From assembly GCA_043767805.1 (NCBI GenBank), contig JAYUGC010000003.1:1-19208 (forward strand): a stretch of DNA of 19,208 nt, in the 5' to 3' direction. The stretch comes from Pseudomonadota bacterium. Lineage in GTDB: Bacteria > Bdellovibrionota > FAC87 > UBA2466. The translations under genes were made by a program, and so were the position numbers. A model generated the notes under the pieces. The model did no database searches and was not told the origin of the DNA. It saw only the letters and a program-made list of their open reading frames with translations. Shown here piece by piece: positions 338-16,799 of this stretch; positions within the stretch are counted from its first letter, which is position 1; each line of letters starts with the position of its first letter.

Positions 338-709
338 CTACGGATTCTGGGATTCTTGACCCGACGTCGGCGTGGTCAAATCGCGGTTCATCGACTCGGT
401 CTGAGCTTCGGTGTTCTCCGGCTGCTCAACCTTCGTCTCGGTCGTGGCGTCAGGCGCAATGCGCATCTGAGTCGCACGACGGTGCGCTCTGGCAGTGCCG
501 CCTTCACGGCCGATTTGCGACATATGCGCTCTGTCGCGGCTGACCGCGAGTCCGCCTTTGCGTCCGGCTTCGCGCGCTTCTTCCGACGTAAATTCGTGAG
601 CCGTGCCTTGCTGGTGAGCCGCGCGGCCGCCCTTGCTCGCAATTTCTTTTTGTTTCTCCGCGTCCATGGACGCGAAGCCCCGATTACTCGTTTTTGCAGA
701 TTGTGCCAT
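338..709 (-). CDS. KGG-repeat stress-induced protein (YciG/GsiB/Con-10-like)
   Basis: RGFASMDAEKQKEIASKGG, HEFTSEEAREAGRKGG and HMSQIGREGG repeats; GGAGG RBS-like sequence upstream. Confidence 0.95.
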   Translation of the reverse strand: MAQSAKTSNRGFASMDAEKQKEIASKGGRAAHQQGTAHEFTSEEAREAGRKGGLAVSRDRAHMSQIGREGGTARAHRRATQMRIAPDATTETKVEQPENTEAQTESMNRDLTTPTSGQESQNP

Positions 710-753
710 GAGAGTGTTGCCTCCGTTTGCGGTTTAAGTTCTTCAACCGATTT

Positions 754-769
754 TGCAACGGCTGTGCCA
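754..769 (-). promoter_or_regulatory. sigma54 -24/-12 promoter for the KGG gene
   Basis: TGGCAC-AGCCG-TTGCA, a perfect consensus match, 45 nt upstream of the ATG. Confidence 0.9.
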
Positions 770-794
770 CTAACGGCGGAGCCCGTAAGATTGG

Positions 795-810
795 TGGCAT
801 TGGGTTTGCA
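795..810 (+). promoter_or_regulatory. sigma54 promoter for 923..1210 and 1267..1407
   Basis: TGGCAT-TGGGT-TTGCA. Confidence 0.8.
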
Positions 811-890
811 ACGCCTCTTACCGCGCCCTTCGCAGCTGGCAAAGTTGAAGCTGTGAAACTCAAGTGACGTACAGCGTGCGAAGGGCGGAT

Positions 891-907
891 TGTTGCAAAC
901 TGAAACA
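891..907. promoter_or_regulatory. Candidate enhancer (UAS) palindrome
   Basis: TGTTGCA-AAC-TGAAACA, about 120 nt upstream of the KGG sigma54 promoter. Similar 17-mers recur near other promoters. Confidence 0.55.
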
Positions 908-922
908 AAAATAAGGAATCAG

Positions 923-1210
923 ATGCCGAATTTAGCGAACGTAAACAGAAAAGCCCGGGAAGGATTCGACGCCTTCCCCGTGGGCGCTGTCGCGTTGGCC
1001 GCGGTATCAGGGTTCGTGCTGGGCGGATTTCTCGCCCGGCGGTTCGGGGCGAAGCCAAACGGCTATGATTCACACTTTACGGGACATTATCCCCGTTTTA
1101 CGGGCGCAATCAGCGCCGTCACGGGCGGTCCCCCCGAGGATATGAACGCAATGCCCGTCTGTCCCGATCCCAAGATCGAGGCCTGTATCTACGACGGAAC
1201 GCAGCTCTAG
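923..1210 (+). CDS. Small single-pass membrane protein
   Basis: AAGGAA RBS before ATG 923 (preferred over TTG 890). TM segment FPVGAVALAAVSGFVLGGFLARR resembles the DUF883/ElaB anchor. Confidence 0.7.
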   Translation: MPNLANVNRKAREGFDAFPVGAVALAAVSGFVLGGFLARRFGAKPNGYDSHFTGHYPRFTGAISAVTGGPPEDMNAMPVCPDPKIEACIYDGTQL

Positions 1211-1266
1211 TTCCTCGTTAATCCCCAGATAAACACAACTTTAAGTAGACGACCTCCGAGGAAAAC

Positions 1267-1407
1267 ATGAACTGGGTCCTGCAAAATCAGTATCGGGCTG
1301 GAAAGATCCCCAACTCGCGCTCTGGCCGGCTTTTTCCCCTAAAAGATCTCGCGTTCCTACTGGGCGTCAGTGTTTGCGTGATCGCCCTCATCGCGACCGG
1401 TCATTAA
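1267..1407 (+). CDS. 46-aa tail-anchored membrane microprotein
   Basis: Not in the ORF track. GAGGA RBS; MNWVLQNQYRAGKIPNSRSGRLFPLKDLAFLLGVSVCVIALIATGH. Confidence 0.65.
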   Translation: MNWVLQNQYRAGKIPNSRSGRLFPLKDLAFLLGVSVCVIALIATGH

Positions 1408-1432
1408 CTCTCACGAGTGCAGGTTCCGCTTT

Positions 1433-2137
1433 TTACCGGCCCGGCGCTTTGAGTCCTGCCTCTCTTGGGCGACGGGCATGTCGCTTTTCGGCAACAGGGG
1501 CCGCTGCGACAGGCGTGAGAAAAGCGCTGAGGTGCGGCTCGAAATTCTGCCGGATGGAGAAAAAAGTACCCTGGACCGGCACTTTCTTACCCTTCTTGTT
1601 CACCAACGGAAGCTCCAGACGTTTGCGGTTAAAAAGCCGTCGGAGCGCGTCGGTCTTCAGACGCTTGGCGAGGGAGCGATATTGTTTCTTCGCGTCCTGG
1701 GCGAGCAACACCGTGGTCAAATCCTCCAACGCTCTTTCCGCCCGAGCTCGGCGAGAAGCGAGGTCGATGGTGAGCTTCAGCTCTCTTTCGGTCACGGGCT
1801 TGTGTAGGTAGCCGAAGGGCTCAACGGTGTCGGCCGCTCGCAAGACGCTGTCATCTAGATGAGAGCTCACGAAGATGGTGGGCACCGCGGAATGTTGCTT
1901 GAGCCAACGGGCGACGGCTATCCGTGAAGCCCGATCCTTGTCCCCACTAGGGTCGAGGTCGACCAAAGCGAGATCCGGGCGCGGTAAGGCAAGCAGGTTC
2001 AGCTTCGCGGCATCTTCCGGAACGATGTGGGTGATGGTGTGGCCGAGGTTCCCAAGGGCCTGTTCCAAGGCGTGGGCGATCAGAATTTCGTCTTCCACAA
2101 TCCAAATACGAATAGGTTCAGGGGTGGGTGAGCTCAC
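1433..2137 (-). CDS. Response regulator (receiver, coiled coil, PAS/PAC-like remnant)
   Basis: IWIVEDE, LALVDLD (phosphoacceptor) and FGYLHKP motifs. GTG 2137 chosen because the sigma54 promoter at 2160-2175 lies inside the longer ORF. Confidence 0.85.
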   Translation of the reverse strand: MSSPTPEPIRIWIVEDEILIAHALEQALGNLGHTITHIVPEDAAKLNLLALPRPDLALVDLDPSGDKDRASRIAVARWLKQHSAVPTIFVSSHLDDSVLRAADTVEPFGYLHKPVTERELKLTIDLASRRARAERALEDLTTVLLAQDAKKQYRSLAKRLKTDALRRLFNRKRLELPLVNKKGKKVPVQGTFFSIRQNFEPHLSAFLTPVAAAPVAEKRHARRPREAGLKAPGR

Positions 2138-2159
2138 GGTATTCTCTGGGCGAACAGGC

Positions 2160-2175
2160 AGCAAAAAAAATGCCA
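2160..2175 (-). promoter_or_regulatory. sigma54 promoter for the response regulator
   Basis: TGGCAT-TTTTT-TTGCT. Confidence 0.8.
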
Positions 2176-2196
2176 GAGTCATTTTGTCGAAGAGAC

Positions 2197-2251
2197 TGTG
2201 GCGCATTGAAACGGTGGTCTGTGGCATAAAGCATCGTTGCACTCTGCTCCA
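2197..2251. promoter_or_regulatory. Three tandem candidate UAS 17-mers
   Basis: TGTGGCG-CAT-TGAAACG (2197), TGTGGCA-TAA-AGCATCG (2220) and CGTTGCA-CTC-TGCTCCA (2235), lying between divergent sigma54 promoters. Confidence 0.5.
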
Positions 2252-2304
2252 AAAACTCCTCTTTTAGAACCCAATCCTGCAGGGCCTCTCCGAGGGCCCA
2301 GTTA

Positions 2305-2320
2305 TGGCATTGGAAATGCA
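2305..2320 (+). promoter_or_regulatory. Putative sigma54 promoter facing 2623..2997 and the activator gene
   Basis: TGGCAT-TGGAA-ATGCA. About 300 nt from the next start codon, so less certain. Confidence 0.55.
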
Positions 2321-2622
2321 CTAAGTTTGGTTTCAGAATCACGAGTCTTTGTGTTTCAAAAATTCGGCTAGTAAACCAGAGCTTCTGGGGGAGCTCAGCG
2401 ACTTTGAAACGGCGCTCCAGAAAGGCGCGAATGGCCTTAGGCCCAAGGGATCAAGCTGACCTGGAAGGGAGAGCGCCGCGAGTGGCCTGGTCCGAGGCCG
2501 AAGTTGGTTAAGGATCGGCGTACCTTTCTCATATTTTTCGATGTCGTTTTTCTCCCGCTGACGGTTGGCTTCTTCACCGCGCGGTAGTCGATGGTTTTAA
2601 AAATCTTCCAAGGAGGGCCAGA

Positions 2623-2997
2623 GTGGAAAGAAATAATCCGAAACACGGAAAAAGAGATATTTCCCTAACGGGCAATCCTGAGCCTCTCGAGGCGGGAGAA
2701 ACGAGTGAGGATAGATCCGAGGAAATTTCCCTGGGATCGATTCGAGGCTCAGCGACGGGAGAGGGCGATCGAGATGTCGTTCCCGGCGGCTGGGGCGGAA
2801 CCGAGGACGCTACCTCGACAGCGCCCAGCGATATGATGGGCATTAATTTAAGTCCCGACGGGCTTCCGCCCGAGCCGGATATCAACAAGTTAGGTGATGA
2901 TCTGGGAGATATATCCGATCTCTTGGAAACGGATACCGAAGGCGCCGATAATAGTCCGGCCGACGTTCAATCGCACCGCGTCTCTCGCTCCGCTTAG
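2623..2997 (+). CDS. Acidic, probably disordered hypothetical protein (hydrophilin-like)
   Basis: Strong AAGGAGG RBS before GTG; rich in D/E/G/S/T. Confidence 0.75.
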   Translation: MERNNPKHGKRDISLTGNPEPLEAGETSEDRSEEISLGSIRGSATGEGDRDVVPGGWGGTEDATSTAPSDMMGINLSPDGLPPEPDINKLGDDLGDISDLLETDTEGADNSPADVQSHRVSRSA

Positions 2998-3102
2998 GAA
3001 GATAAGGCTTTCTGGGCGGCTCGGTTGATTTTCAAATGCCGCCATGAGACGTTTCGATCGAAAAGACCAATAGAAAACGTGGGTTAACTTTAGGGGGTTC
3101 CA

Positions 3103-4559
<1,457 letters not shown>

Positions 4560-4563
<4 letters not shown>

Positions 4564-5147
4564 GCAGCGAGCCGCTCGGGATGTCCGTGGGCGTCCACGG
4601 GTATGTCCGCTTTGGCTTCGCCCGCCCGAGACACGCCTTCTCCCTTTGCCGCAGCCAAAATGTCCTCGGCCTGTTTGGCCCAGGCTTTGGAATCGCAATG
4701 CACGGAGAGTAGCGCCTTTCCTTTCGTTACGATGCCTTCAAAGCGTTTCGCCTCAAACTCCGGAATGCCCAGGCCAATGAGCCCGCCAATGATGGCGCCC
4801 AGCACCGTTCCGGAGCCAAGTAGGCTGAGCATCGCGAGAATCGGACCTGCCGCGATGAACGGCTCGAAGAACGAAACGGCCAAATTTCCGCTGCCCGCGA
4901 TGGCCCCGAAGACCGCGCCTAAAAGGCCGGCGATCGCCCCACCGAGTGCGACGCCTTCGGACAATTTTGACTTTTTTCGGTAACCGAACTCTTTCGGATT
5001 TGAGTCATCGCCGAAGAGGACCGAGATGTCGGAAGCCCGAAAGCCGCTCGATCTCAAGTGAGTGATGGCTCCTTCCACCCGAAGCTCGTCGTCAAATAGG
5101 CCATACACGGTAATTTTATCGTCTCTATTCAAGTAACCTCCGTTCAT
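4560..5147 (-). CDS. General stress membrane protein (YflT/17M, DUF3341-like)
   Basis: VYGLFD...GFRASDISVL, glycine-zipper TM hairpin, AAGPI...GLIGLGIPEFEAKRFE...LLSVH. ATGA overlap with the BON gene. Confidence 0.88.
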
Positions 5148-5542
5148 TCGGCCATGACTTCAATATCGTTTACGACGCGCTTACCACTTGCCGCTTCTTT
5201 CGCTCGCTTTTCCACCCGGGACCGTTCTTGTTCGTTCGGAACGCTGCCCCTGAGGGTAATCGTGCCGCGGTCGACCAGAATGGCCACGTTCTTCCCGTAC
5301 ACGGAAAGCCCCTCATCTTCGACGAAGGCTTCTCGCACCTGCCGCGCGAGCGCTTTGTCTCTTGCGTCCATGCGGAAGTCTACGTCCGGTGAGCTGGTGT
5401 TCGGATTCGCGCCGGAAGTTTCCAGGGCAGAGTCTCTTCTCGACTCGTTGAAAGCGACCCGATCAGATTTAGCGATACCGAGTACTGGTATCAGCCCCAG
5501 CAAAATCCCAACTTGAAAGAGGAACTGCTTTGTGACGTTCAT
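5144..5542 (-). CDS. BON-domain (OsmY-like) exported protein
   Basis: Signal peptide; DKALARQVREAFVED...NVAILVDRGTITLRGSVPNEQER...VVNDIEV; AAGGAGG RBS. Confidence 0.92.
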   Translation of the reverse strand: MNVTKQFLFQVGILLGLIPVLGIAKSDRVAFNESRRDSALETSGANPNTSSPDVDFRMDARDKALARQVREAFVEDEGLSVYGKNVAILVDRGTITLRGSVPNEQERSRVEKRAKEAASGKRVVNDIEVMAE

Positions 5543-5576
5543 GGCTCGTCCTCCTTAGGTTTTTCAACTTTACAGG

Positions 5577-5592
5577 TGCAACGGCTGTGCCT
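5577..5592 (-). promoter_or_regulatory. sigma54 promoter for the BON-YflT operon
   Basis: AGGCAC-AGCCG-TTGCA; 15 of 16 nt identical to the KGG promoter. Confidence 0.88.
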
Positions 5593-5907
5593 TGTCTCAA
5601 AAGGCTCTTGCCCCTACCCGTTACGGGAAAGAAATCGAAGCAAGAAGGGGAAGAGGGGGGAAGCCGGCCTTCCCTGGGGGGAAAGCCGGCCATCGATCCT
5701 TTTGGGGAGTGGTCGGGAGATGGAAATACTCACATCTCAGTCGCGGCGGATCGCGGCCGCCACTGTTGTAGGAGGAAGTCATTGCAAACGGTGGACCGAG
5801 ATTCTTAACTCTAAGGGGCCTCGTTCGAGACGAAAGTTGCCACGAATCGTTGCAGCCATCATCGATACTGCGGGCTGAGCGGCAGAGGAACGGGCACAAC
5901 CTTAGTC

Positions 5908-5923
5908 TGGCATCGAGGCTGCA
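5908..5923 (+). promoter_or_regulatory. sigma54 promoter for the OMP remnant and YHS gene
   Basis: TGGCAT-CGAGG-CTGCA, 39 nt upstream of an ATG with an AGAGG RBS. Confidence 0.7.
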
Positions 5924-6720: not shown

Positions 6721-7200
6721 TTACTTACGGATGGCGACGCTCTCGGCGGCGATATAGACCTGAGCGGCCAGGATGTCCCGTCTCTCGTTTTCGTTCACTT
6801 TGTCCCACATGAGATCCGACACGGGAACCGATTCGAGCAGCCGAACCGTGCCGAGAACGCGCACGCGGTCGCCGCGGCGAACGTGCTCGACTACGGGAGT
6901 GCGCATTTTGTCCTCACGGACGATGGGCACGCCCGAATGGGTATCGCCGGCCCAAAACACGTAATTGCCGACGACCTCGTCCACCGGCGCGTCGGCGATG
7001 CTGACCTTGCGCCCGACGAGAGACCGCTTATCGGCTGTACTCGAAATCACCGTCAATTCACTGATGGTGTTATTGCCGCCTTGGGTTTCGTTTCCGTTAC
7101 CGGTTCCGATCCCGTTGTCCTTGCCGCAGCCCAGGAGAACGAAAAGAACAGAGACCGCGCTGAGCCCCAACCGACGTTTCAACGTTTGTGCTTGTGTCAT
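6721..7200 (-). CDS. Lipoprotein of unknown function (possible OB-fold-like domain)
   Basis: Lipobox LLGC after a basic/hydrophobic signal; GN-rich linker; VRRGDRVRVLGTV. Confidence 0.8.
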   Translation of the reverse strand: MTQAQTLKRRLGLSAVSVLFVLLGCGKDNGIGTGNGNETQGGNNTISELTVISSTADKRSLVGRKVSIADAPVDEVVGNYVFWAGDTHSGVPIVREDKMRTPVVEHVRRGDRVRVLGTVRLLESVPVSDLMWDKVNENERRDILAAQVYIAAESVAIRK

Positions 7201-7218
7201 GTGATTTACCTAAGCGGA

Positions 7219-7557
7219 TTATTCCGCCGTGCCTTTCTCTAAATTTTCGAGGTGTCTCAAACGGACGTCCACGCGTTGTTGATAGCTGTTCCACTCGGAA
7301 GCGGGCGCGCCTTCCATGTTGCGGAGCTCGGCCCGAGCGTCCCGGGCGTTCGCCATGAGATCACGTCCCCGCTCTCGGTTTTTCATATTGTTCGCTTCTT
7401 TTTCCCAGCGATCGAGTTTCTTATCGACGGTCTTGATGTACCCCGCGCGATCCGTGGACTCGATGTTGGTGGTGCGGGAGGGCCTCGAAGAGCAGCCTCC
7501 GATTAAGAGCAGTCCCGCCAGAGCGGGAGCTACGCATAGATTTTTTAGTTTCATCAT
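7219..7557 (-). CDS. Helical/coiled-coil lipoprotein
   Basis: AAGGAG RBS; lipobox IGGC; amphipathic helices. Confidence 0.85.
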   Translation of the reverse strand: MMKLKNLCVAPALAGLLLIGGCSSRPSRTTNIESTDRAGYIKTVDKKLDRWEKEANNMKNRERGRDLMANARDARAELRNMEGAPASEWNSYQQRVDVRLRHLENLEKGTAE

Positions 7558-7585
7558 GGTTCTCCTTTATTTAGATTTAGTTTGG

Positions 7586-7873
7586 TTAATGAATGAGGTC
7601 CTGGCGGTGTTTGCGAAAATGGAAGAGTCCCAGCATGGGATCGACGTGATCTTCCGTGAGCAGGTCGAATAGCTGAGTGAAAAGCAGCTGCTGTTCCGCC
7701 GTCGTTTTGGGCGCCATGCGCTCCCCCCCGACGTACGAGCCGTCTTCCCCAGAGAAATTAGAAGCGCCGCCGCGCACTTCGGAGAGGAGCCCGCCGACTT
7801 CGTCGTAGTCGACAAGGGAGTCTCCCGCTTCCTGTTGAGACCGGACGTGAGTCGTGGATTTATCGTTTATCAT
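7586..7873 (-). CDS. Hypothetical protein, first gene of the lipoprotein operon
   Basis: ATG 7873 has a GAGGGG RBS and lies downstream of the predicted sigma54 start site; the upstream ATG 7912 does not. Confidence 0.65.
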   Translation of the reverse strand: MINDKSTTHVRSQQEAGDSLVDYDEVGGLLSEVRGGASNFSGEDGSYVGGERMAPKTTAEQQLLFTQLFDLLTEDHVDPMLGLFHFRKHRQDLIH

Positions 7874-7920: not shown

Positions 7921-7936
7921 TGCAATCGTCGTACCA
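7921..7936 (-). promoter_or_regulatory. sigma54 promoter for the 7873-6721 operon
   Basis: TGGTAC-GACGA-TTGCA. Confidence 0.8.
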
Positions 7937-7977: not shown

Positions 7978-7993
7978 TGGCAGGCGCGTTGCA
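7978..7993 (+). promoter_or_regulatory. sigma54 promoter for 8050..8253
   Basis: TGGCAG-GCGCG-TTGCA. Confidence 0.78.
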
Positions 7994-8412: not shown

Positions 8413-9591
8413 GTGATCGGCCGAGAAAAACCCAAAGTCGTCTTGTTCGCGGAATCAGCGGAGCGTGCCGAGTCACTGGCAAAGGCTCTGGTCTGCGACG
8501 CATACGATTGCGAGACCTCGCCCTTTGAAGGGGCGGAGGCGGCGCTCGTCGATCCTCGGCTTTGTTTTGCCATTATTTTGCTCGAGGACTCGGCCGAGTC
8601 CGGCTTGAAGCTTGCTCGTTCTCTCGGCGAGACTTCCCTTTTTCACGGTTTGCCTTTTTGTTTTCTCACCAGCTCAACTCGCGACGTGCGCACCGAGGCT
8701 GAGGCCTATGCCTGCGGCGCTGTGGATTACGTGGCGCTGCCCGCCGATACTTCCCTCCTAAGAACGAAGCTCACTACGTTGGTGCGCTTGGCAGCCGGCC
8801 GCACCGTCGAGCGAGACGGCGGATCCGAGGAAGTGATCCGTCTTAAACGCGCGCTGGAGACGACCAGCGGCGAGCTCGAACGTTTTGCCTCCGTCTGCTC
8901 TCACGATCTCCGCGAGCCCTTGCGCATCGTCATTTTGATGGCGCAATCTCTCGATCGCCACTACTCGGATAAGCTCGGGCGAGAAGGCAAAGAGCTCGTG
9001 GATCTCATCGTCGCGGGCTCGCGCCGTTTAGCCGAGCGGATCGACGGCATTCTCGAGTATTCCCGTGTTACGGGCGGCCAGGTCGCGGCCCGCGAAGTAG
9101 ATCTGGACGCCTCTCTCGATACCGCCCTGAGAGCGCTGGCTCCGGCCATCGAACAAACGGGCGCGACCATCGAGCGCGTGAAGCTGCCCCGTCTTTGGGG
9201 GAACGCCGAGCAGTTCGTCCGCCTTTTCCAGAATCTCATCGGCAACGCGCTTAAATTTAGAGGGGCTGAAGCGCCGCTCGTGCGCCTCACCGTCGAGAAA
9301 CACGGCAATCAGTCGCGGGTAACCGTTTCGGACAATGGCATCGGCATCGACGCCCAGTACGCCGATAGGCTATTTCGGATTTTCAAGAGATTACACCGTC
9401 CGGAAGAATATCCCGGGGTTGGTATCGGACTTGCCATCTGCAAGCGAATCGTGGAAAGCCACGGTGGCTCGCTCTGGTTCGAGTCGGAACCGGGTAGGGG
9501 GACGGCGTTTCATTTTACAGTGAGTCCCATGCGCGAGACGCGCGCTTTTGAGAACAAGGGCCGATATACGGCGCCCTCGCTGCACTCCTGA
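8413..9591 (+). CDS. Cytoplasmic histidine kinase with an N-terminal degenerate receiver (bacteriophytochrome/Cph1-type kinase core)
   Basis: H-box SHDLREPL, N-box QNLIGNALKF, DNGIGI, FRIFKRLH, GVGIGLAIC. N-terminal receiver-like region (GAVDYV) lacks the acidic pair and the conserved Lys. Confidence 0.95.
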   Translation: MIGREKPKVVLFAESAERAESLAKALVCDAYDCETSPFEGAEAALVDPRLCFAIILLEDSAESGLKLARSLGETSLFHGLPFCFLTSSTRDVRTEAEAYACGAVDYVALPADTSLLRTKLTTLVRLAAGRTVERDGGSEEVIRLKRALETTSGELERFASVCSHDLREPLRIVILMAQSLDRHYSDKLGREGKELVDLIVAGSRRLAERIDGILEYSRVTGGQVAAREVDLDASLDTALRALAPAIEQTGATIERVKLPRLWGNAEQFVRLFQNLIGNALKFRGAEAPLVRLTVEKHGNQSRVTVSDNGIGIDAQYADRLFRIFKRLHRPEEYPGVGIGLAICKRIVESHGGSLWFESEPGRGTAFHFTVSPMRETRAFENKGRYTAPSLHS

Positions 9592-9636
9592 CATAGCTGG
9601 GCCCCATCCGAAGTGAATCGAACGGGGCCCAAACTT

Positions 9637-10197
9637 TTAGTGGTAGCTTTTCGGTTCGCCGTCGGGCGTGGGCGTTTCAGTGGACGTGGGGGCCCATTCT
9701 TTGGCCGCGCCCCCGTCGCCCATTTCGGCTTTGTGGAGCAGGTGGCCTTCCGCCTTCGTGGCGATACGGCCAATGACCTCATCCACTTCACCGGAGATGG
9801 CGGGAATTGCCTGCTTCAGCATCTTGCCGAAAGAGCGCGCAAGACTTCCCAGCACGACCCCTTTGATGAGCTTCAGCTCTTCGTCGAAGGGCCCCGGTTG
9901 CCTGGGCCCTCTCGGAACGCTCGGCGCGAACGCCGTTCGTTCGAAGGAGCTGGAAGAAGAACGGCCCGCGAGCCATCCTCCCACCGCGGCTCCCGCTACG
10001 AGGGATCCTCCCAAAGACCAAAGCGGAAACTGCTTGATCTGATGAGTTGGGGTGATTTTCTGCAGCCCTTCCTTCACGTTCTCGATGGTGCCCTCGACCG
10101 TACTGCGAAGCTGGCTTTCGAGCGAAGCGAAGTCCTGGCCGATTTCGTCTTTGGTTACCTCGATTCGTTCCCGAATCAGGTTTGGTTGTTCAGCCAT
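9637..10197 (-). CDS. DUF3618-like membrane-anchored protein
   Basis: IRERIEVTKDEIGQDFASLE N-terminal helix, FPLWSLGGSLVAGAAVG TM; overlaps the holin-family gene. Confidence 0.75.
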   Translation of the reverse strand: MAEQPNLIRERIEVTKDEIGQDFASLESQLRSTVEGTIENVKEGLQKITPTHQIKQFPLWSLGGSLVAGAAVGGWLAGRSSSSSFERTAFAPSVPRGPRQPGPFDEELKLIKGVVLGSLARSFGKMLKQAIPAISGEVDEVIGRIATKAEGHLLHKAEMGDGGAAKEWAPTSTETPTPDGEPKSYH

Positions 10198-10595
10198 CGC
10201 ACGTTCTCCTGTTCGGCGCCTTCCACAACGGAGGCGCGCTTTTTATCGGACGCGATCTCACCGAGCGGCCAGCCAACTTCCTTCACTTGTTTCTCGTACC
10301 AAACGTAGCATCCGATCGCCGCCGCGAAGTAAACGATGGCGACTCCGAGGCAAGCAAATCCCACGGAAACGCCGTTTTCCACGAGGAGAGCGACGATCGC
10401 GGCCGTGAAGAGTACGAATCCAAAGGCGGCCGCGGCGGCTCCGATCACCAAACCCGTGAGGGCTTTGGCACTTTGCCGCACTTCCGCTTTGACGAGTGCC
10501 ACCTCTTGGCGAACCAAGGTTTGGGTGTCGTCCAAGATCTTACCGAACGTCACAGATAAAGAAGGTTGATTGTCTTTTTTAGAAAGGGCTTCCAC
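10176..10595 (-). CDS. Holin-X / Phage_holin_3_6 family membrane protein (YqjE-like)
   Basis: SLSVTFGKILDDTQTLVRQEVALVKAEVRQ followed by two TM helices. Confidence 0.88.
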   Translation of the reverse strand: MEALSKKDNQPSLSVTFGKILDDTQTLVRQEVALVKAEVRQSAKALTGLVIGAAAAAFGFVLFTAAIVALLVENGVSVGFACLGVAIVYFAAAIGCYVWYEKQVKEVGWPLGEIASDKKRASVVEGAEQENVRWLNNQT

Positions 10596-10596
10596 T

Positions 10597-10932
10597 TTAT
10601 TTTCTCGCTACAGCGTAGCCAAGGATCAGACCCGCGCCGAAACCAATCAGCAGGGCTTGGCCAGGGTTGTTACGGACGAAAGTACGCGTCTCGCCGACCG
10701 CTTTTTCGCCGTACTCCTGAGCTTTGTGAGCTACGTCGGTTACTTTTTCTTGAGCTTGGGACGTAAAATCGGAAAAGCCATCCTTCATGTGCGACAAAGC
10801 CGAGGAAGCTTTTTGCGCAAGCGTGTCAGTGCCCTGCGCGGCAGCGGCTCCGGTCGAGGCTCCGCTGGCGACTTGGGACATAGAAGGATTATCGTGTTTT
10901 TCGTTCTTCGCGGTAGATCCGGTATTTTGCAT
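10597..10932 (-). CDS. ElaB/YqjD/DUF883-like tail-anchored protein
   Basis: Helical hydrophilic body, then FVRNNPGQALLIGFGAGLILGYAVARK. ATG 10932 has an AGAGG RBS; 10962 is an alternative start. Confidence 0.9.
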   Translation of the reverse strand: MQNTGSTAKNEKHDNPSMSQVASGASTGAAAAQGTDTLAQKASSALSHMKDGFSDFTSQAQEKVTDVAHKAQEYGEKAVGETRTFVRNNPGQALLIGFGAGLILGYAVARK

Positions 10933-10998: not shown

Positions 10999-11014
10999 TG
11001 CAGAAGTCATGCCG
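10999..11014 (-). promoter_or_regulatory. sigma54 promoter for the DUF883-holin-DUF3618 operon
   Basis: CGGCAT-GACTT-CTGCA, with candidate UAS 17-mers upstream at 11044 and 11086. Confidence 0.7.
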
Positions 11015-11161
11015 TAGGGAATGCCCCCGCTGGTCTGGGTTTTTGATGCCTATTGAAACAAGGCAGTAGGAGGATTTCCGGCCGGCATTGCGGACTTCAA
11101 CAACTCTTGGGGTGTCTCTTAAGGGAGACACTGGTGCGCATTATGGAATGCCGGAAAAGTG

Positions 11162-11216
11162 AAAGGGGTGGCGCGAGCCGCTTTTTAAGCCGCGATCGCG
11201 CCACCCCTTTTTCTTC
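11162..11216. terminator. Strong stem-loop / intrinsic terminator
   Basis: Perfect 15-bp inverted repeat AAAGGGGTGGCGCGA/TCGCGCCACCCCTTT with a 19-nt loop and T-rich tails on both strands. Confidence 0.75.
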
Positions 11217-11337: not shown

Positions 11338-11520
11338 TCAGAAAATAATTTTTTCAGCGAGCACAAGCGTATAAAGCGATCCGAGAACTCCGAACATGAA
11401 TAGCAAGTCCATCAGTGGTACGCCTTTTTTCTTGGCCATGGCGCCCAAATGCCTCGGGAGGAAATACAGCTTGTCGCCAAGTTGTGTTGATTGGGCGTTC
11501 CCAAAACTTCCCGAGTACAT
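11338..11520 (-). CDS. 60-aa tail-anchored membrane microprotein
   Basis: AGGAGG RBS before ATG 11520; C-terminal PLMDLLFMFGVLGSLYTLVLAEKIIF; has its own sigma54 promoter. Confidence 0.75.
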   Translation of the reverse strand: MYSGSFGNAQSTQLGDKLYFLPRHLGAMAKKKGVPLMDLLFMFGVLGSLYTLVLAEKIIF

Positions 11521-11595
11521 ATGGCCTCCTGGCATTTCTATCCGTCACGCTCTCGACGTTAGGCGTGTTCTGATGTGTTGTTTGTTTAGATAAAA

Positions 11596-11611
11596 TGCAA
11601 CCCCTGTGCCA
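11596..11611 (-). promoter_or_regulatory. sigma54 promoter for the 60-aa microprotein
   Basis: TGGCAC-AGGGG-TTGCA, perfect consensus. Confidence 0.88.
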
Positions 11612-11734
11612 CTCAATTTCGTGCGGAAAGAGCAAATCGCGCACGAAGTTTTGTATCAGAACGACACAGGAAAAGTGTGACAGGCAACACTCTACAGGGA
11701 TGAGCTTGCCGTGCCGCGCGTTGAAAAAATTATT

Positions 11735-11750
11735 TGGCACGACAACTGCT
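11735..11750 (+). promoter_or_regulatory. sigma54 promoter for the lipoprotein at 11805
   Basis: TGGCAC-GACAA-CTGCT. Confidence 0.78.
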
Positions 11751-11804
11751 TCTCCCTTAAGCACGAGGTTGATTTCTCACAAAATAATTTGAAAGGGTTC
11801 ACTC

Positions 11805-12209
11805 ATGAAAAAATTATGGTTTCTAGGACTAGGTATGGTCGCTCTAGTGGGTTGCAGCTCCAGCCCTAAGACCGTAGCCGTCGAGGACAGACTTTCGGAT
11901 AGGCAGGGCGCAATGGAAAAATCCGACGAATTTCTCACCGACGCTCAGGGCGAGCTGAACAATATGTCCAAAAAGATTAGCGACATGAAAAAGGATTCTC
12001 AGGGCAAAGCGGGTCTTCCCAACAAGGCGCGCTTCGAGAGTTCGTTAGATCATCTGTTACTAGCGGTGCAACGTTCGCAACTCGATCTGCGGGAACTTCA
12101 AGCGCGTAACACCGAGCGCCGCAGACAGTTCGAGAGCCGCGTCAACCGCGCCATGGAACCGGTCGCTCAGCCTGTCGTGGGCGATGACGACGTTTACCAA
12201 GCCGATTGA
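11805..12209 (+). CDS. Coiled-coil lipoprotein
   Basis: MKKLWFLGLGMVALVGC lipobox; heptad-like helices. Confidence 0.88.
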   Translation: MKKLWFLGLGMVALVGCSSSPKTVAVEDRLSDRQGAMEKSDEFLTDAQGELNNMSKKISDMKKDSQGKAGLPNKARFESSLDHLLLAVQRSQLDLRELQARNTERRRQFESRVNRAMEPVAQPVVGDDDVYQAD

Positions 12210-12218
12210 TGAGGGAAA

Positions 12219-12422
12219 ATGCGACGGCCTAAAGCGTTCTCCGAGGAGCTGAAGCTGCAATTAGGAGAAGAGCCCGTCGATCTCACCGCTTATCGCCTCG
12301 CCCACCGGCTGTTCTGGTTCAGAACGGCCGGTGGGGACGAGGTAAATTTTCAAACGCTCTACGAGCAGGTCCGCGCTCTCTTAAAGCGGGAAGCGGCTTT
12401 GGAAAACGCGGAAGCGCCGTAA
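12219..12422 (+). CDS. Small hypothetical protein
   Basis: GAGGGA RBS, 9 nt after the upstream stop; helical sequence. Confidence 0.7.
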   Translation: MRRPKAFSEELKLQLGEEPVDLTAYRLAHRLFWFRTAGGDEVNFQTLYEQVRALLKREAALENAEAP

Positions 12423-12618
12423 AGCCTCATTCCGCAATCTTGCTTTCAATCCCCGCCAAAATATTCTTGGGTACGTACGCTTCGGCGTGATGGGCGGCGG
12501 AAAATCGATCCCGGCTTCCGTCTCCAGCAAATACTGCGGGATAAGCATCACCAGCCCGTACATTGCCGAGCCTTTGAAAAGCCGGCGCACTGACTTAAAA
12601 GTCGGTATTTCGTTCCAT
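12381..12618 (-). pseudogene. Decayed gene for a conserved small membrane protein
   Basis: RRLFKGSAMYGLVMLIPQYLLETEAGIDFPPPIT resembles, from memory, the N-terminus of a conserved hypothetical membrane family. The RBS-associated ATG (12618) is out of frame and the similarity ends after PPPIT. Confidence 0.5.
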
Positions 12619-12710
12619 TCGCCCCTTATACCTCCAGGTCCTTCCCGCCTCAGGTTTCCCCGCCGAACGAACGATAAGTAGATAACCCTCCTTCGACGAC
12701 AGGAAACCTC

Positions 12711-13841
12711 ATGGCCTTGCGCATTGCGTTTTTCCTGTTAATTGTGACTTTTCTGCCTCGGACCAGCTTCGGAAAGACCCGGAGCTTATGCCGGGGCCTA
12801 GGGCCCAATCCGTCGAACGTGACTGATTTTTACGAAGACAATCCCACCTATTTCGCGCCGCTTTCCGACGGTGGCGACTGGCCGAAGGGAACGCCTGAAA
12901 GCCAGGGGCTGCGCTCGGCCCCTCTGAAAGAAGCGACGTACCAGCTCGCCTCTCTTCCTCAGCCTTTGAGCTTTCTCGTCCTTAGGGACGGAGTGCTCGT
13001 CTGGGAAAAATACTTTCACGGCACTCAGGTCTTTCACAGCAACAACATTCACTCGGCCTCGAAATCGATCATCGGCGCGCTGATGGGGATCGCGCAAAGA
13101 GAAGGCTTCTTCGATCACGTCGATCAAAGCATCAGTGATTTTCTTTCCAGCTCGTTTCAGATTGGCGCGAAGAAAAAGATCACGCTTCGTCATCTGCTCA
13201 CCATGACCTCGGGTCTTCAGTGGGTCGAGGACGAGACGGAGTACGAGATCGAAAAGAGCGCGAACTGGGCGCAAGCGATGCTGAACCTTCCCCAACGCGA
13301 TCCGGCCGGTTCTAAATTTTTCTACAGCACCGCCAATACTCACCTTTTGTCGACGATTCTGACCGAAGCGACGGGAATGGACACGTGCTCCTTCGCGCGC
13401 AAGTACTTGCTCGATCCGCTCGGAATCTCGGTCGAGCATTGGGGCCGCGATCCCCAAGGGTACTACTCCGGCGGTTACAACGTTTACCTAACGCCGAGAG
13501 AGATGGCGAAGTTCGGCCAGCTTTATTTGCATGAGGGCGATTGGAACGGGAAGTCTCTCGTGCCTTCCGAATGGGTGAAGGCTTCCGTTACTCCTTCGCA
13601 AACCGTCGATGCGAATCGTAAGTACGGCTACCTTTGGTGGCTCGTCACCTTGGAGGGGCATGCGGCTTACAAGATGTGGGGTTACGGCGGGCAATTCGTC
13701 TACGTGATCCCGAGCCTCGATCTAGTTGTAGTGCTGACCGCCGACACCAAGGCCGAGCATCCAGAGCTAAACGGGGATGACTTCATGAAGAAGTACGTGC
13801 TTCCCGCGGCGGTCCGGAAACCCGGTTCTCGCCCTCTCTAG
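12711..13841 (+). CDS. Exported serine hydrolase, beta-lactamase-related (AmpC/NylB-like)
   Basis: Signal peptide, SASK (SxxK), ITLRHLLTMTSG, FFYSTAN, WGYGGQF. Confidence 0.93.
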   Translation: MALRIAFFLLIVTFLPRTSFGKTRSLCRGLGPNPSNVTDFYEDNPTYFAPLSDGGDWPKGTPESQGLRSAPLKEATYQLASLPQPLSFLVLRDGVLVWEKYFHGTQVFHSNNIHSASKSIIGALMGIAQREGFFDHVDQSISDFLSSSFQIGAKKKITLRHLLTMTSGLQWVEDETEYEIEKSANWAQAMLNLPQRDPAGSKFFYSTANTHLLSTILTEATGMDTCSFARKYLLDPLGISVEHWGRDPQGYYSGGYNVYLTPREMAKFGQLYLHEGDWNGKSLVPSEWVKASVTPSQTVDANRKYGYLWWLVTLEGHAAYKMWGYGGQFVYVIPSLDLVVVLTADTKAEHPELNGDDFMKKYVLPAAVRKPGSRPL

Positions 13842-13875
13842 GCACGGTTTTTCGCCCGTATACTGGCTGTAAGCA

Positions 13876-14183
13876 TTGAGTCTCTCCTTCGATGGAGTGC
13901 CGGTGGGCGCTTCGCGAGCCGCATTTTCGTTTTGACTAACGATGGCCAGTGGGATGCCACCGCCGTTGCGATGATTTCAATGCCGGCCGATGCGTTTAGC
14001 CTCGGCACCACCACTTGCGCGGATTACTTGCCCCCAGGCGCGAGCTGCGACATCGAAGTGATCTTCGCGCCCGCCGACATTGCCCCGGCGAGCTCTTCCC
14101 TGGAATTCACCTACGAGGACGGCATCAACACCGGCATCTCGGTCTCGGCGGCTTTCTTCGGTAACGGCATCTCTCCCCGCTAG
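13876..14183 (+). pseudogene. Frameshifted fragment of an Ig-like ASH / choice-of-anchor-D domain
   Basis: LSFDGVPVGA in one frame, then ASRIFVLTNDG...TTCADYLPPGASCDIEVIFAP...LEFTYEDG in another (shift near 13912). No signal peptide or RBS. Confidence 0.6.
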
Positions 14184-14190
14184 TTAAAAC

Positions 14191-14206
14191 TGGCATGTGG
14201 CTTGCT
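14191..14206 (+). promoter_or_regulatory. sigma54 promoter for the membrane-protein operon
   Basis: TGGCAT-GTGGC-TTGCT, immediately after the upstream stop codon. Confidence 0.8.
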
Positions 14207-14220
14207 CCTCTAACCTTCGA

Positions 14221-14781
14221 ATGGTTAAACGACGACCTCATCTTTCAGGCTTACGGAGTATTCGCGGCGGCCTCAGCGCGCCGTATCACCCCAATCGCAG
14301 AAAGCTCATCCAAATCTCATGGGCAGGCTTTTCGGGGACGCTAGTCACTCTGTTCATGAGTGCGATGCTCTACATCGCGGGGTGGAGCAGCACCGACTTC
14401 GGCGCTCTCTTTGGCTCTTTTCTCGTCAAGGGAGATCCTCCGCTCGTTTCAGAGCCCGCGTGGTGGGTGGGACTCACGATCTATTTGATCTTGGGCGCCT
14501 TCGTTTTCCCGATAGGCGTTGATTACCTCGCTGCCAGAAAGCTTCTCACGAATCACCGATGGACCAAGGGGCTCGCCGCCGGTTTCATTTTGTGGTTCGT
14601 GGCGGAGGCGCTATTGAAACCGCTCGCCGGCATGGGATTTTTCTCCAATCGGCTTCCCGCTTCGTTTGCCGCCACTCTTTTTTCTCTCGCGCTTTGGTTA
14701 TCGTACGCTTTGATTTTTGAAAAGGGAACGCGAGTTCGCCTCGTGCACGACCTTCGTTTGGTCGAGGCAGAGGCTGCTTAA
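14221..14781 (+). CDS. Four-TM membrane protein (DUF6789-like)
   Basis: AGFSGTLVTLFM, DFGALFGS, WWVGLTIY, KGLAAGFILW, PLAGMGFFS. Start moved to ATG 14221, downstream of the promoter. Confidence 0.75.
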   Translation: MVKRRPHLSGLRSIRGGLSAPYHPNRRKLIQISWAGFSGTLVTLFMSAMLYIAGWSSTDFGALFGSFLVKGDPPLVSEPAWWVGLTIYLILGAFVFPIGVDYLAARKLLTNHRWTKGLAAGFILWFVAEALLKPLAGMGFFSNRLPASFAATLFSLALWLSYALIFEKGTRVRLVHDLRLVEAEAA

Positions 14782-14792
14782 AGAAAGGGACA

Positions 14793-14954
14793 ATGAGTAA
14801 GAAAGAAGAGACGAAGCTGAAGCCGCATGAAAAAAAGCCCGCTCTGCGCAAGGGAGGCTCAGCAGGCACCGACGAAGGCGGAGAGGGCGGAACCGCGGGT
14901 AACTGGGGAGGCGGCGCGACGGTAGGGAGTGCGAAGTCAGGCCCTTCCAAGTAA
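14793..14954 (+). CDS. 53-aa Gly/Lys-rich hydrophilin-like microprotein
   Basis: Not in the ORF track. AAAGGGA RBS 11 nt after the upstream stop; MSKKEETKLKPHEKKPALRKGGSAGTDEGGEGGTAGNWGGGATVGSAKSGPSK. Confidence 0.7.
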   Translation: MSKKEETKLKPHEKKPALRKGGSAGTDEGGEGGTAGNWGGGATVGSAKSGPSK

Positions 14955-15007
14955 CGTTTGTAGCATTCGGTCTCCTCTTTTGTTGCAACCAGAAGCAGGG
15001 GCATTTA

Positions 15008-15023
15008 TGGCACTTAGCTTGCA
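15008..15023 (+). promoter_or_regulatory. sigma54 promoter for the small protein ending at 15372
   Basis: TGGCAC-TTAGC-TTGCA, perfect consensus; 17-mer TGTTGCA-ACC-AGAAGCA just upstream (14981-14997). Confidence 0.85.
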
Positions 15024-15138
15024 CCAACGAAAAAAGTTTCTCTTTGAAAAGTTACGACAAGACCGGGGGCCCAGTATCCAAGAAAACTTAAGAGGAAGCG
15101 CCCCTTCGGGCCGGTGGATCGGGCGCGGTGACATTCGG

Positions 15139-15372
15139 GTGGAATGCCGGCAGGACGGAACCGAAGGAGACACGCCCGCGCGGTTTCATTTGGGGCGCGA
15201 GCCTTTGGATATCGTCGAGGTGAAAGAGAGCTGGCTCTCTCCGGAGCATTGTTACTTCAAAGTCGGGACCGAGGATGGCGCGGAATATATTCTCCGCCAC
15301 GATCGGCGTTACGATTTGTGGGAAGTGACGACTTTCGCGGCGATCGATGTCGACGTGCCGTCGACGGATTAG
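15139..15372 (+). CDS. Small conserved hypothetical protein (DUF6504-like)
   Basis: IRVEC...TPARFHLG...DIVEVKESWLSPEHCYFKV...YILRHD...WEV. Start uncertain; GTG 15139 is the first in-frame start after the promoter. Confidence 0.7.
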   Translation: MECRQDGTEGDTPARFHLGREPLDIVEVKESWLSPEHCYFKVGTEDGAEYILRHDRRYDLWEVTTFAAIDVDVPSTD

Positions 15373-15803
15373 GCTGCGCAAATTGTTTTCGGGCGCGCCG
15401 TGCGGATGGCGTCTTTGAGCGAGCTCACTTCGTCCGCGAGTAGCCCAAACACATCGTCGAAAGATAGAAGGGCGACCGCTTTACCCGCTTTATCCACGAT
15501 GGGAATGCGCCGCACTTCCGATTTTTTCATCTTATCGACAACATTGTAGATGCCTTCATCGAGGCTGACTGATTCCACCGGCCGGCTCATGATGGCTTCG
15601 GCAAGGGTCGTGGCGGCCGGCTTTTTTTCGGCGAGGCAGCGGAGCGTGAGATCGCGGTCGGTGATGATCCCGACGGGTTTGCCACCGGAAGTGACCAGCA
15701 CCGCGCCCACGTCTTTATCGCGCATCATTTGCGCGACAGTTTCCGCGGAGGTTTCGGGGGCACACGCCACGAGATCCCGATCCAAAAAATTTTTGAGTGG
15801 CAT
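15369..15803 (-). CDS. CBS-domain pair protein
   Basis: AQMMRDKDVGAVLV...GIITDRDL, MKKSEVRRIPIVD...LLSFDD. ATG 15803 lies downstream of the promoter. Confidence 0.93.
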   Translation of the reverse strand: MPLKNFLDRDLVACAPETSAETVAQMMRDKDVGAVLVTSGGKPVGIITDRDLTLRCLAEKKPAATTLAEAIMSRPVESVSLDEGIYNVVDKMKKSEVRRIPIVDKAGKAVALLSFDDVFGLLADEVSSLKDAIRTARPKTICAA

Positions 15804-15816
15804 GATCGCTAGAGAG

Positions 15817-15832
15817 TGCAAAGCGGGGGCCA
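15817..15832 (-). promoter_or_regulatory. sigma54 promoter for the CBS gene
   Basis: TGGCCC-CCGCT-TTGCA. Confidence 0.7.
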
Positions 15833-15847
15833 TTAAACGGAGCGCCT

Positions 15848-15863
15848 TGGCACGCCGCTCGCT
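15848..15863 (+). promoter_or_regulatory. sigma54 promoter for the EEP phosphodiesterase
   Basis: TGGCAC-GCCGC-TCGCT. Confidence 0.65.
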
Positions 15864-15881
15864 TTTCCTTACGCTTAATCC

Positions 15882-16799
15882 TTGCCCTTAAAATTTGGCC
15901 GCTTACTTTCCCTAGCGGTACTGGTGTGCGCTCTGGTTCGTTGCGGTGCGGACAAACCCGCGAAGCCTCTCGTACTGGGTTACGAGACCAAGGCCACGCC
16001 TGTTTCACTTCTCGCCTACAACACGTTTCTTCGGCCTCATGTGGTGGGGCTTTGGGACAAGAAGGCGGAGCGGCTTCCCGCCAACATCGAGGCGGCGAGC
16101 CGCTACGACGTGGTTGGTTTGAGCGAGGTCTTTGATGACAAGATGCGGGCGGAGCTAAGAAGGAAGCTGAAGGTCTCTCACCCTTACGTGGTCGAGCCGC
16201 CGACGGATCCCTACGGCGTCCGCGAGGATGGCGGCATTTTCTTGATGAGCCGTTTTCCCATCGTGTTCTCGAGGCGATGGATTTACGGCGAAGGAGCGGG
16301 AGCGGATGCTCTGTCGGTCAAGGGCGTGATTTACGCGCGCTTGCAGGTGGGAACGCAAAAACTCGATGTCATGGTGACCCACGCGCAATCAGGAAGCGAG
16401 CATGCGGCCGTGAGAAAGCGCCAGTTCGAAGAGCTCAGCCGCTTTGCCGCCGAGTGGGAAAGTAAGGACGTCGCGCAGGTGCTCCTCGGAGATTTGAATG
16501 TGGCGGAGGCCGAGACGGGCGAGTACGAGTCGATGCTCTCGGTGTTGGGGCAGCCTTGGGATGTGTACCGGCATTTGAACCAGGATCAGGGCTTCACTTC
16601 CGATGGGCTCATGAACGCGTTGGTGGGCAACTCGGTGCGGGAGCGCATCGACTATCTGCTCTGCCGGCATTGCGAGGGTAGGGAAGACTGGTTCAAAACG
16701 AGCCGGGTCGAGCCCTTTCCCTTGAAGGTGCCCGCGGGGAAGGCCAAGTTCGGATCCGACCACTACGCGGTTACGGCCGTCATGGAAATACCCCAATGA
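15882..16799 (+). CDS. Exported endonuclease/exonuclease/phosphatase-family enzyme, sphingomyelinase-C-like
   Basis: AYNTFLRP, DVVGLSEVFD, GGIFLMSRFPI, ADALSVKG, THAQS, GDLNV, RIDY, SDHYAV; N-terminal signal with Cys. Confidence 0.92.
   Translation: MPLKFGRLLSLAVLVCALVRCGADKPAKPLVLGYETKATPVSLLAYNTFLRPHVVGLWDKKAERLPANIEAASRYDVVGLSEVFDDKMRAELRRKLKVSHPYVVEPPTDPYGVREDGGIFLMSRFPIVFSRRWIYGEGAGADALSVKGVIYARLQVGTQKLDVMVTHAQSGSEHAAVRKRQFEELSRFAAEWESKDVAQVLLGDLNVAEAETGEYESMLSVLGQPWDVYRHLNQDQGFTSDGLMNALVGNSVRERIDYLLCRHCEGREDWFKTSRVEPFPLKVPAGKAKFGSDHYAVTAVMEIPQ

Follow-up and report, generated by a model that had tools for sequence, protein, structure and literature searches.

General stress regulons are classically controlled by RpoS, SigB or EcfG, sigma-70-family factors that compete for core RNA polymerase. 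The RpoS regulon of Escherichia coli includes osmY, yciG, elaB and yqjD-yqjE, and the SigB regulon of Bacillus subtilis includes gsiB and yflT. Sigma-54 (RpoN) is known from local stress modules such as PspF-psp, ZraSR-zraP and RtcR-rtcBA. Here we analysed a stretch of 19,208 bases (the window), which is the whole of contig C3 in a 4.52-Mb genome of 204 contigs (G000) whose host, an uncultured relative of predatory Bdellovibrio, was placed by its closest relatives among Pseudobdellovibrionaceae, phylum Bdellovibrionota. Between positions 338 and 16,799 the window carries a dense cluster of predicted sigma-54 promoters facing KGG, BON, ElaB/YqjD-like and similar genes, with an NtrC-type activator gene embedded among them, and this conserved cluster is probably an activator-dependent regulon of small, mostly envelope or membrane genes of stress-protection type.

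The local modules PspF-psp, ZraSR-zraP and RtcR-rtcBA resemble the window in having one activator beside stress-responsive sigma-54 targets, but they comprise one or two promoters with a single function, whereas the window holds over a dozen promoters and mixed products. With the RpoS and SigB regulons the window shares KGG, BON and PF07332-type genes and, weakly, DUF883 and YflT, the overlap being partial; those regulons depend on sigma-70-family factors, whereas the window genes bear -24/-12 promoters and no dedicated stress sigma factor was found in the genome. The binding sites of Nla28, a sigma-54 activator of Myxococcus xanthus, are reportedly tandem and experimentally defined. Nla28 directs the early starvation response and regulates activator genes (PMC9765219), and M. 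xanthus is, like the host, a related RpoS-less lineage rich in activators, although the Nla28 targets are developmental and its regulon is dispersed. In Borrelia, the Rrp2-RpoN-RpoS pathway sets an NtrC-type activator and sigma-54 atop a global adaptive response (PMC2940757); sigma-54 there drives rpoS, and RpoS in turn the genes, whereas here no RpoS was found and the stress-type genes bear sigma-54 promoters directly. Psp and metal stress are mentioned as sigma-54 stress systems in PMC4641369.

The closest partial precedent is the sigma-54 "general stress" system DVU3303-3305 of Desulfovibrio vulgaris (PMC3333781). It combines, like the window, an NtrC-type activator, a kinase and a second response regulator, and acts on its own operon and neighbouring membrane or hypothetical genes, which are induced there by several stresses. 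Its four reported target operons are its own, the adjacent one and two at other places; its products are of UspA type, one of its response regulators is a Lon-protease one, and its binding motif is backed by experiment. The window, by comparison, has 12-16 units, KGG, BON and YqjD-type products, no Lon regulator and no motif that we could find. For Bdellovibrio itself, the sigma-54 or RpoN literature that we retrieved consisted of sigma-factor inventories, which list RpoD, FliA, RpoN, two RpoE-like factors and a sigma-70-like factor (PMC3464611, PMC11209729). Literature searches on sigma-54 with general stress, KGG, BON, OsmY, YqjD, ElaB, YciG, CsbD or desiccation gave no account of such wiring. 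A survey from 2025 that compares sigma-54 regulons across phyla makes no mention of Bdellovibrio or of general stress in its main text (PMC12316311). An earlier note on this DNA knew of no description of this architecture.

A dense cluster of predicted sigma-54 promoters

Genes were called by codon usage and domains were assigned by Pfam profile search with cut-offs. Sites were matched to the consensus TGGCAC-N5-TTGCW, and the GG-N10-GC core was required in genome counts. The earlier note had listed 15 sites, all of which are present at the same coordinates and strands (Table 1). Fourteen of them have at most two mismatches (three perfect, nine with one and two with two) and exact GG-N10-GC spacing, whereas the fifteenth, 10999-, reads CGGCAT-N5-CTGCA and has three mismatches with the core intact (11.7 bits). 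A position matrix trained on 138 well-placed sites outside the window detected 346 sites of at least 12 bits genome-wide, of which 14 lie in the window. The scan added a sixteenth site, 5783-, and the core is retained in all 16. Matches at 4676+, 8229- and 13955+ were dropped because GG or GC of the core was absent.

The window contains 17 matches with at most two mismatches against 6.92 +/- 2.74 in 200 shuffles, none of which reached 17. Core-bearing sites with zero, one and two mismatches number 32, 175 and 573 genome-wide and three, nine and two in the window (0.42% of the genome), which tops 2025 sliding windows of 16.5 kb with 12 sites of at most one mismatch, the next-best contig having five. 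The earlier note had left the enrichment unquantified; the intergenic density of well-placed sites is 3.25 per kb in the window versus 0.48 per kb elsewhere, and such a site precedes 11 of the 24 genes in 338-16799 compared with 226 of 4092 genome-wide (hypergeometric p 1.5e-8). The window is thus the strongest sigma-54 cluster of its genome. Across the genome, intergenic DNA makes up 9.9%, yet it holds 27 of the 32 perfect and 120 of the 175 one-mismatch sites.

By our tally, a site faces about 16 of the roughly 18 transcription units between 338 and 16799. At ten sites a credible start codon follows 24-292 nucleotides (nt) past the predicted start of transcription, with clear ribosome-binding sites for KGG, orf124, BON, orf108, orf67, the ElaB-like gene and the small membrane protein and weaker ones for orf106 and lipo134. 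Being intergenic and gene-facing and having conserved footprints, the motifs are, as far as can be told from sequence, real sigma-54 promoters.

The genome encodes a single RpoN (contig C10; TIGR02395, 451.8 bits against a cut-off of 277) and seven sigma-70-family factors, namely RpoD, an RpoH-like factor, FliA and four extracytoplasmic function (ECF) factors. No RpoS, SigB/F/G or PhyR model exceeded its cut-off in profile searches of the host genome, and the named control genomes do exceed it, which fits the earlier suggestion that this gene set runs from RpoN and not from a classic stress factor. The sigma-54 activator domain has 22 matches in the genome, of which 17 full-length proteins and two strong fragments amount to about 19 activators. 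Genome-wide, about 227 well-placed sites of at least 12 bits cover 5.5% of the genes. The 60 best targets outside the window include outer-membrane proteins, FliL, proteases, four DUF4360 paralogues, a lytic transglycosylase, metabolic enzymes and DUF1328, and 36 of the 60 have no Pfam family. Since these promoters are of very mixed function, the regulatory unit is to be sought in the regulon of one activator. The second-densest group of sigma-54 sites was observed on contig C175 (21.6 kb), with eight well-placed sites; it carries an activator gene and a receiver gene behind a 25-bit site.

Conservation in the sister species

The same-genus locus of a sister species (L029; genome 93% complete, activator 84% identical) has the genes from KGG through the serine hydrolase in the same order. 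Ten of the 16 sites are positionally kept, namely those of KGG, orf106, orf124-activator, BON, the non-coding block, orf108, the orf67 position, the ElaB-like operon, the small membrane protein and the lipoprotein. Amid diverged flanks the -24/-12 elements form islands of identity (alignments A1-A3 and the orf124 region), and even the site-specific deviations TGGTA, AATGCA and CGGCA...CTGCA are retained. By synteny with the sister species, the cluster continues to the left onto contig C20 (about 15790-17387), at whose end lie a second BON gene and a gene for hemerythrin with a sigma-54 site of 18 bits. An open frame at window positions 1-324 (-) may be the N-terminus of this second BON protein. 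A paralogous operon of BON and YflT-like genes (46% and 31% identity) lies on contig C71 at 8719-9782 and is preceded by a sigma-54 site of its own, 33 nt from the start.

The two signalling genes other than the activator behave differently. The sister species carries a flavin adenine dinucleotide (FAD)/Rieske oxidoreductase where the window has orf67 and the kinase, and its site L029 14497+ faces that oxidoreductase. No orthologue of kinase 8413 was found in the sister genome, the best match being 44% and confined to the kinase core, and no match to receiver gene 1433 was found there either; lacking sister orthologues, both look like add-on outputs. The earlier note had considered the kinase, which lies 3.8 kb from the activator, as a possible part of the switch. 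This is unsupported, since the sister keeps the activator and the promoters without the kinase.

The embedded activator

The activator has the domain order Response_reg (residues 16-125), Sigma54_activat (158-323), AAA_lid_14 (329-407) and HTH_8 (431-472), aligns end to end with 4l4u and retains GAFTGA and the receiver aspartate. It is the one activator gene in the window, and its subfamily is single-copy in the host genome (E<=1e-112). As it lies behind a conserved sigma-54 promoter, it is probably autoregulated. Its probable autoregulation, its inheritance with the cluster and the recurrence of its relatives beside similar targets make it the natural candidate, and it plausibly drives the cluster, being the likeliest activator to do so.

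Homologues of orf124, the gene that precedes the activator, were observed in three genera, next to the activator or one of its relatives (L029 9626-9952, L087 10296-10493 and L089 about 9753-9890). They encode small acidic proteins with a conserved GGWGGTEDATSTAPSD-like stretch and no Pfam family. The orf124 protein might act together with the activator as a partner, or modulate it.

Wiring in the wider relatives

Relatives of the activator with about 50% identity in other genera of the family adjoin sigma-54 sites. These precede ElaB-like genes (four loci), coiled-coil lipoproteins, hemerythrin, ferritin and orf124 homologues, and in L030 and L031 the activator itself; ferritin and hemerythrin thus appear among the stress-type families in relatives. 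CTGCA-type sites like 10999- also precede ElaB-like operons in other genera. In two genomes from a second family of the same order (L095, L096), sites near activator relatives precede tiny hydrophilic proteins; in L096 a site (6185-) also accompanies a CBS gene that lies 3.5 kb away from the activator relative, whereas L095 shows none.

Family-wide wiring was counted as a same-strand site within 450 nt of a gene. By this measure 10 of 12 KGG genes in the family have a sigma-54 site, and three of eight elsewhere in the phylum; over all 20 KGG genes the controls gave 5/20 on the opposite strand, which are partly real divergent promoters, and 1/20 downstream. Sites were found at 8 of 23 BON genes (controls 0 and 3), mainly short single-domain ones, and at 9 of 26 PF07332 operons (controls 6 and 3), a count that misses the 11.7-bit site of the window. 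The baseline for comparison is the 5.5% of host genes that have such a site.

Outside these groups the picture changes. At ten loci from five other families a kinase lies directly upstream of the related activator in 8/10, with 0-2 sites and none of the stress-type genes. A phylum-wide cluster was rejected on these grounds, and the dense cluster is a family-level and especially a genus-level elaboration. The proposal that this lineage runs the stress set from RpoN is overstated: sigma-54 sites do recur across the family at KGG and at some BON and YqjE-type operons, but the host's sigma-54 promoters are of mixed function and the dense cluster is confined to the family. At four of the other-family loci (L256, L257, L258 and L263) a sigma-54 site was also observed about 1.8 kb upstream of the kinase-activator pair, before a secreted lysine/alanine-rich protein of 66-78 residues. 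This protein may be the ancestral single target of the activator subfamily.

Gene content

The gene families named in the earlier note were retrieved above cut-off for KGG, BON, PF07332, the NtrC-type activator and the histidine kinase, but the YflT and ElaB/YqjD assignments stay below threshold. The membrane protein at 4560-5147 matches YflT (0.0016) and ActD (1e-4), both under the Pfam cut-off, and is kept in the sister species along with its BON partner. All six orthologues of the ElaB-like protein fall under the gathering score for DUF883 (PF05957/PF19029), three of six matching each of DUF883 and DUF883_C with best E values of 0.0074 for DUF883_C and 0.09 for DUF883 (0.038 and 0.098 for the window protein). 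The resemblance to ElaB/YqjD lies in architecture and in the following gene, which belongs to PF07332 (Holin-X), a family that we take to be that of YqjE; alignment A4 has the C-terminal glycine-zipper anchor conserved.

Many products are exported or membrane-bound, including BON with a signal peptide, three to four lipobox proteins (the lipoproteins of the orf108 operon have lipobox-like LIGGC and LLGC), the tail-anchored ElaB-like protein and PF07332. Further genes of the window encode a YHS protein, several lipoproteins, family-less small proteins, a serine hydrolase, an endonuclease/exonuclease/phosphatase (EEP)-family protein and an outer-membrane barrel. Pfam searches of the window found no catalase, Dps, trehalose or DNA-repair genes. 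The proposed general stress role is drawn from this gene content.

A model of the proposed regulon and its alternatives

In the model that we consider probable for this cluster, sigma-54 RNA polymerase would wait in a closed complex at each -24/-12 site until, in response to a signal, the embedded NtrC-type activator (3103-4563) became phosphorylated on its receiver domain; its AAA+ ring would then spend adenosine triphosphate (ATP) to open the cluster promoters. The promoters with their enrichment and conservation, the sigma-factor inventory and the activator domains come directly from the sequence, and the acting activator, the signal and the physiological role are inferred. As the orf124-activator operon lies behind a promoter of its own type, positive feedback would be expected. 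The outputs would be KGG, BON with the YflT-like protein, the operon of ElaB/YqjD-like and YqjE-type membrane proteins, the coiled-coil lipoproteins, the tiny membrane protein and CBS, together with the second BON and hemerythrin of the adjoining contig and probably a small RNA. Kinase 8413 and receiver protein 1433 would be recent additions switched on by the system, serving as feedback or relay parts and not as the primary sensor. A broader version, in which one autoregulated NtrC-type activator acting through sigma-54 is the master switch of general stress or dormancy in Pseudobdellovibrionaceae, where no RpoS, SigB or PhyR/EcfG-type system was found, and directly drives KGG, BON, YqjD/YqjE-type, hemerythrin and small RNA genes, is possible and is offered tentatively.

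Several observations weigh against this model. The placement of six sites (2160-, 5908+, 14191+, 15008+, 15817- and 15848+) is less clean, several lacking a clean start codon; the ATGs at 14221 and 15803 lie only 3-4 nt past the predicted starts, so that these transcripts would be leaderless if the sites are real. The sister species has not kept six of the 16 sites, including the four right-hand ones, which have no counterpart. Across the family most BON and PF07332 genes have no site, the multi-BON OsmY-type genes mostly lack a promoter, and in G005 a KGG gene beside an activator relative shows none. In a sample of 151 genomes of the phylum, 12 have a sigma-54 site before a KGG gene, and 4/12 have no activator relative (E<=1e-112) against 8/12 that do, these genomes being related to one another.

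The search for an activator-binding site points the same way. Searches of the upstream regions by k-mer, by dyad (exact and one-mismatch, 49 cluster promoters versus 138 other promoters) and by footprint against the sister species revealed no shared enhancer motif. Discriminative k-mers, before and after masking promoter-like words, gave TGCAAC/GTTGCA only, which is indistinguishable from partner or decayed -12 elements. Four divergent promoter pairs are separated by just 15-41 bp or run into coding starts, so that a shared enhancer could not fit between them. In three genomes of another genus a palindrome TGCAACAG-N13-CTGTTGCA occurs at about -78 of the KGG promoters, and TGCAACA-N14-16-TGTTGCA lies at a fixed distance of about 78-80 nt before them in L106 (G023), L108 (G012) and L105 (G043). 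It is likely an activator-binding site in those genomes. An exact scan of five genomes found four sites, two at KGG genes, one intragenic and one in a short intergenic gap; those away from KGG have no promoter nearby and none occurs in the host genome. The palindrome was rejected as a general enhancer, being confined to that genus.

The strongest alternative, which we nevertheless regard as rather unlikely, is that the promoters are real but the cluster is an island of sigma-54 sites on which at least two of the roughly 19 activators act, the embedded one controlling only its own operon and perhaps a few neighbours. With that many activators and about 227 predicted promoters in the genome, others could serve some cluster promoters. 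The missing enhancer motif, the four genomes with a sigma-54 site before KGG but no close activator relative, the unconserved right-hand sites and the 2-4 paralogues of the activator subfamily in several family genomes all favour such an arrangement. It sits poorly with the presence of a single activator gene in the window and a single subfamily member in the genome, with the repeated flanking of relatives by similar sigma-54-driven genes in other genera, and with the inheritance of the cluster core as a block with the activator in the sister. The attribution of the set to the embedded activator, made in the earlier note, is plausible: the conserved promoter and the relatives speak for it, the missing enhancer motif and the four genomes without a relative against it.

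It is improbable, though less so than a chance origin of the motifs, that the cluster is one activator's regulon with a narrow purpose, for instance to answer envelope, osmotic or desiccation stress or to serve one stage of the life cycle (a resting form or the non-growing predatory attack phase). Many products are exported or membrane-bound, catalase, Dps, trehalose and DNA-repair genes are missing from the window, and the relatives in other families form a kinase-activator pair with a single small secreted target. Known sigma-54 stress systems such as Psp and ZraR are likewise narrow. A D. vulgaris table gives the same impression (PMC4641369). Against a narrow purpose, however, the set includes cytoplasmic hydrophilic proteins, namely KGG, CBS and hemerythrin, and no alternative general stress sigma factor was found in the genome. 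Its families also match known markers of the broad RpoS and SigB regulons.

That the motifs are chance matches or copies of a repeated element can practically be dismissed: 15008+, 15817- and 14191+ overlap possible coding starts and one site has three mismatches, but none of the 200 shuffles reaches the count, the window leads all 2025 genome windows, the sites face genes with only the -24/-12 blocks conserved while flanks diverge, and the matrix was trained outside the window.

Other features of the locus

Directly behind the conserved sigma-54-like site 5783- lies a non-coding block (5600..5771) with a predicted fold of -69.1 kcal/mol (z -3.41) that terminates in a strong 13-bp GC-rich hairpin. 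It matches no Rfam family, and by sequence it was found among 34 family genomes in the sister species only. Between the divergent sites 11596- and 11735+ we observed an 8-bp inverted repeat, TTCGTGCG-N14-CGCACGAA (11617-11646, +), of which only the left arm is kept in the sister. Upstream of the ElaB-like promoter there is a long GC-rich inverted repeat (about 11150-11205) with A and T runs alongside, which looks like a two-way terminator separating this promoter from the small membrane protein gene. The G+C content of the window is even (0.49-0.62). A transfer-messenger RNA (tmRNA) gene with the tag GNNYQLAA lies at the right end (18284-19208), and an open frame without clear family overlaps its 3' end and runs off the contig. 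Integration often takes place at tmRNA genes, so the end of the contig may mark the border of an island.

Table 1. Predicted sigma-54 sites, genes and candidate RNA in the window. Coordinates given after L029 are those of the counterpart site in the sister species; starts are predicted starts of transcription.
Feature	Position	Strand	Details
KGG-repeat stress protein	338..709	-	PF10685 E 8.5e-12; sister orthologue 68% identical
Predicted promoter of KGG gene, perfect	754..769	-	22.3 bits; L029 8843-; GGAGG and ATG 34 nt past start
Predicted promoter of orf106, back to back with KGG promoter	795..810	+	14.8 bits; L029 8884+
Receiver-only response regulator, C-terminal half without assigned family	1433..2137	-	Response_reg 8e-9; lineage-specific
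Site facing receiver-only response regulator gene	2160..2175	-	13.0 bits; no clear start or ribosome-binding site
Predicted promoter of orf124-activator operon	2305..2320	+	11.9 bits; L029 9371+, same deviations; AGGAGG and GTG at 2623
orf124, acidic protein, predicted to be co-transcribed with activator	2623..2997	+	no Pfam match
NtrC-type sigma-54 activator (receiver, AAA+, HTH_8)	3103..4563	+	PF00158 3.2e-69, Response_reg, HTH_8
BON-domain protein (5144-5542) and YflT/ActD-like membrane protein (4560-5147), one operon	4560..5542	-	BON 4.7e-11
Predicted promoter of BON/YflT-like operon	5577..5592	-	14.0 bits; L029 12452-
Candidate sigma-54-dependent small RNA or long BON-operon leader	5600..5771	-	about 170-nt non-coding block, conserved in alignment A2
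Site before conserved non-coding block	5783..5798	-	12.9 bits; L029 12636-; absent from the earlier list
Site facing YHS-domain gene, weak case	5908..5923	+	13.3 bits; 234 nt from gene; no sister counterpart
Operon of orf108 and two predicted lipoproteins	6721..7873	-	no Pfam matches; all three kept in sister species
Predicted promoter of orf108/lipoprotein/lipoprotein operon	7921..7936	-	15.6 bits; L029 14474- including TGGTA deviation; start 7873 with ribosome-binding site
Predicted promoter of orf67 and downstream histidine kinase	7978..7993	+	13.4 bits; one-mismatch counterpart L029 14497+
Cytoplasmic histidine kinase, receiver-like N-terminus, lineage-specific	8413..9591	+	HisKA and HATPase_c
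ElaB/YqjD-like tail-anchored protein, PF07332 membrane protein and orf186, one operon	9637..10932	-	PF07332 1.1e-12; synteny with sister
Predicted promoter of ElaB-like/PF07332/orf186 operon, three mismatches	10999..11014	-	11.7 bits; same deviant form at L029 17431-
Predicted promoter of 60-residue membrane protein gene, perfect	11596..11611	-	20.6 bits; L029 17828-; AGGAGG and ATG at 11520
Predicted promoter of coiled-coil lipoprotein gene	11735..11750	+	13.7 bits; L029 17972+
Site at 5' end of membrane protein gene	14191..14206	+	16.5 bits; ATG 4 nt past start; gene not found at sister locus
Perfect-consensus site, ambiguous target and start codon	15008..15023	+	18.6 bits; overlaps possible ATG 15007; not conserved at sister locus
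CBS-pair protein	15369..15803	-	PF00571 7.2e-23
Site of CBS-pair gene	15817..15832	-	16.8 bits; ATG 3 nt past start
Site facing endonuclease/exonuclease/phosphatase-family gene	15848..15863	+	17.5 bits; sister orthologue without site of at least 11 bits

Implications

Sigma-54 promoters are fully off until an ATP-driven activator fires, so expression of the cluster would be tight, switch-like and tied to signalling. If the proposed regulon is true, protective genes in these bacteria would be run by a logic other than sigma-factor competition. As Pseudobdellovibrionaceae has cultured members, the prediction is testable, and the defined promoter set may be used for mining metatranscriptomes. The finding would bear on how RpoS-less bacteria survive through non-growing periods and on the evolutionary rewiring of regulons.

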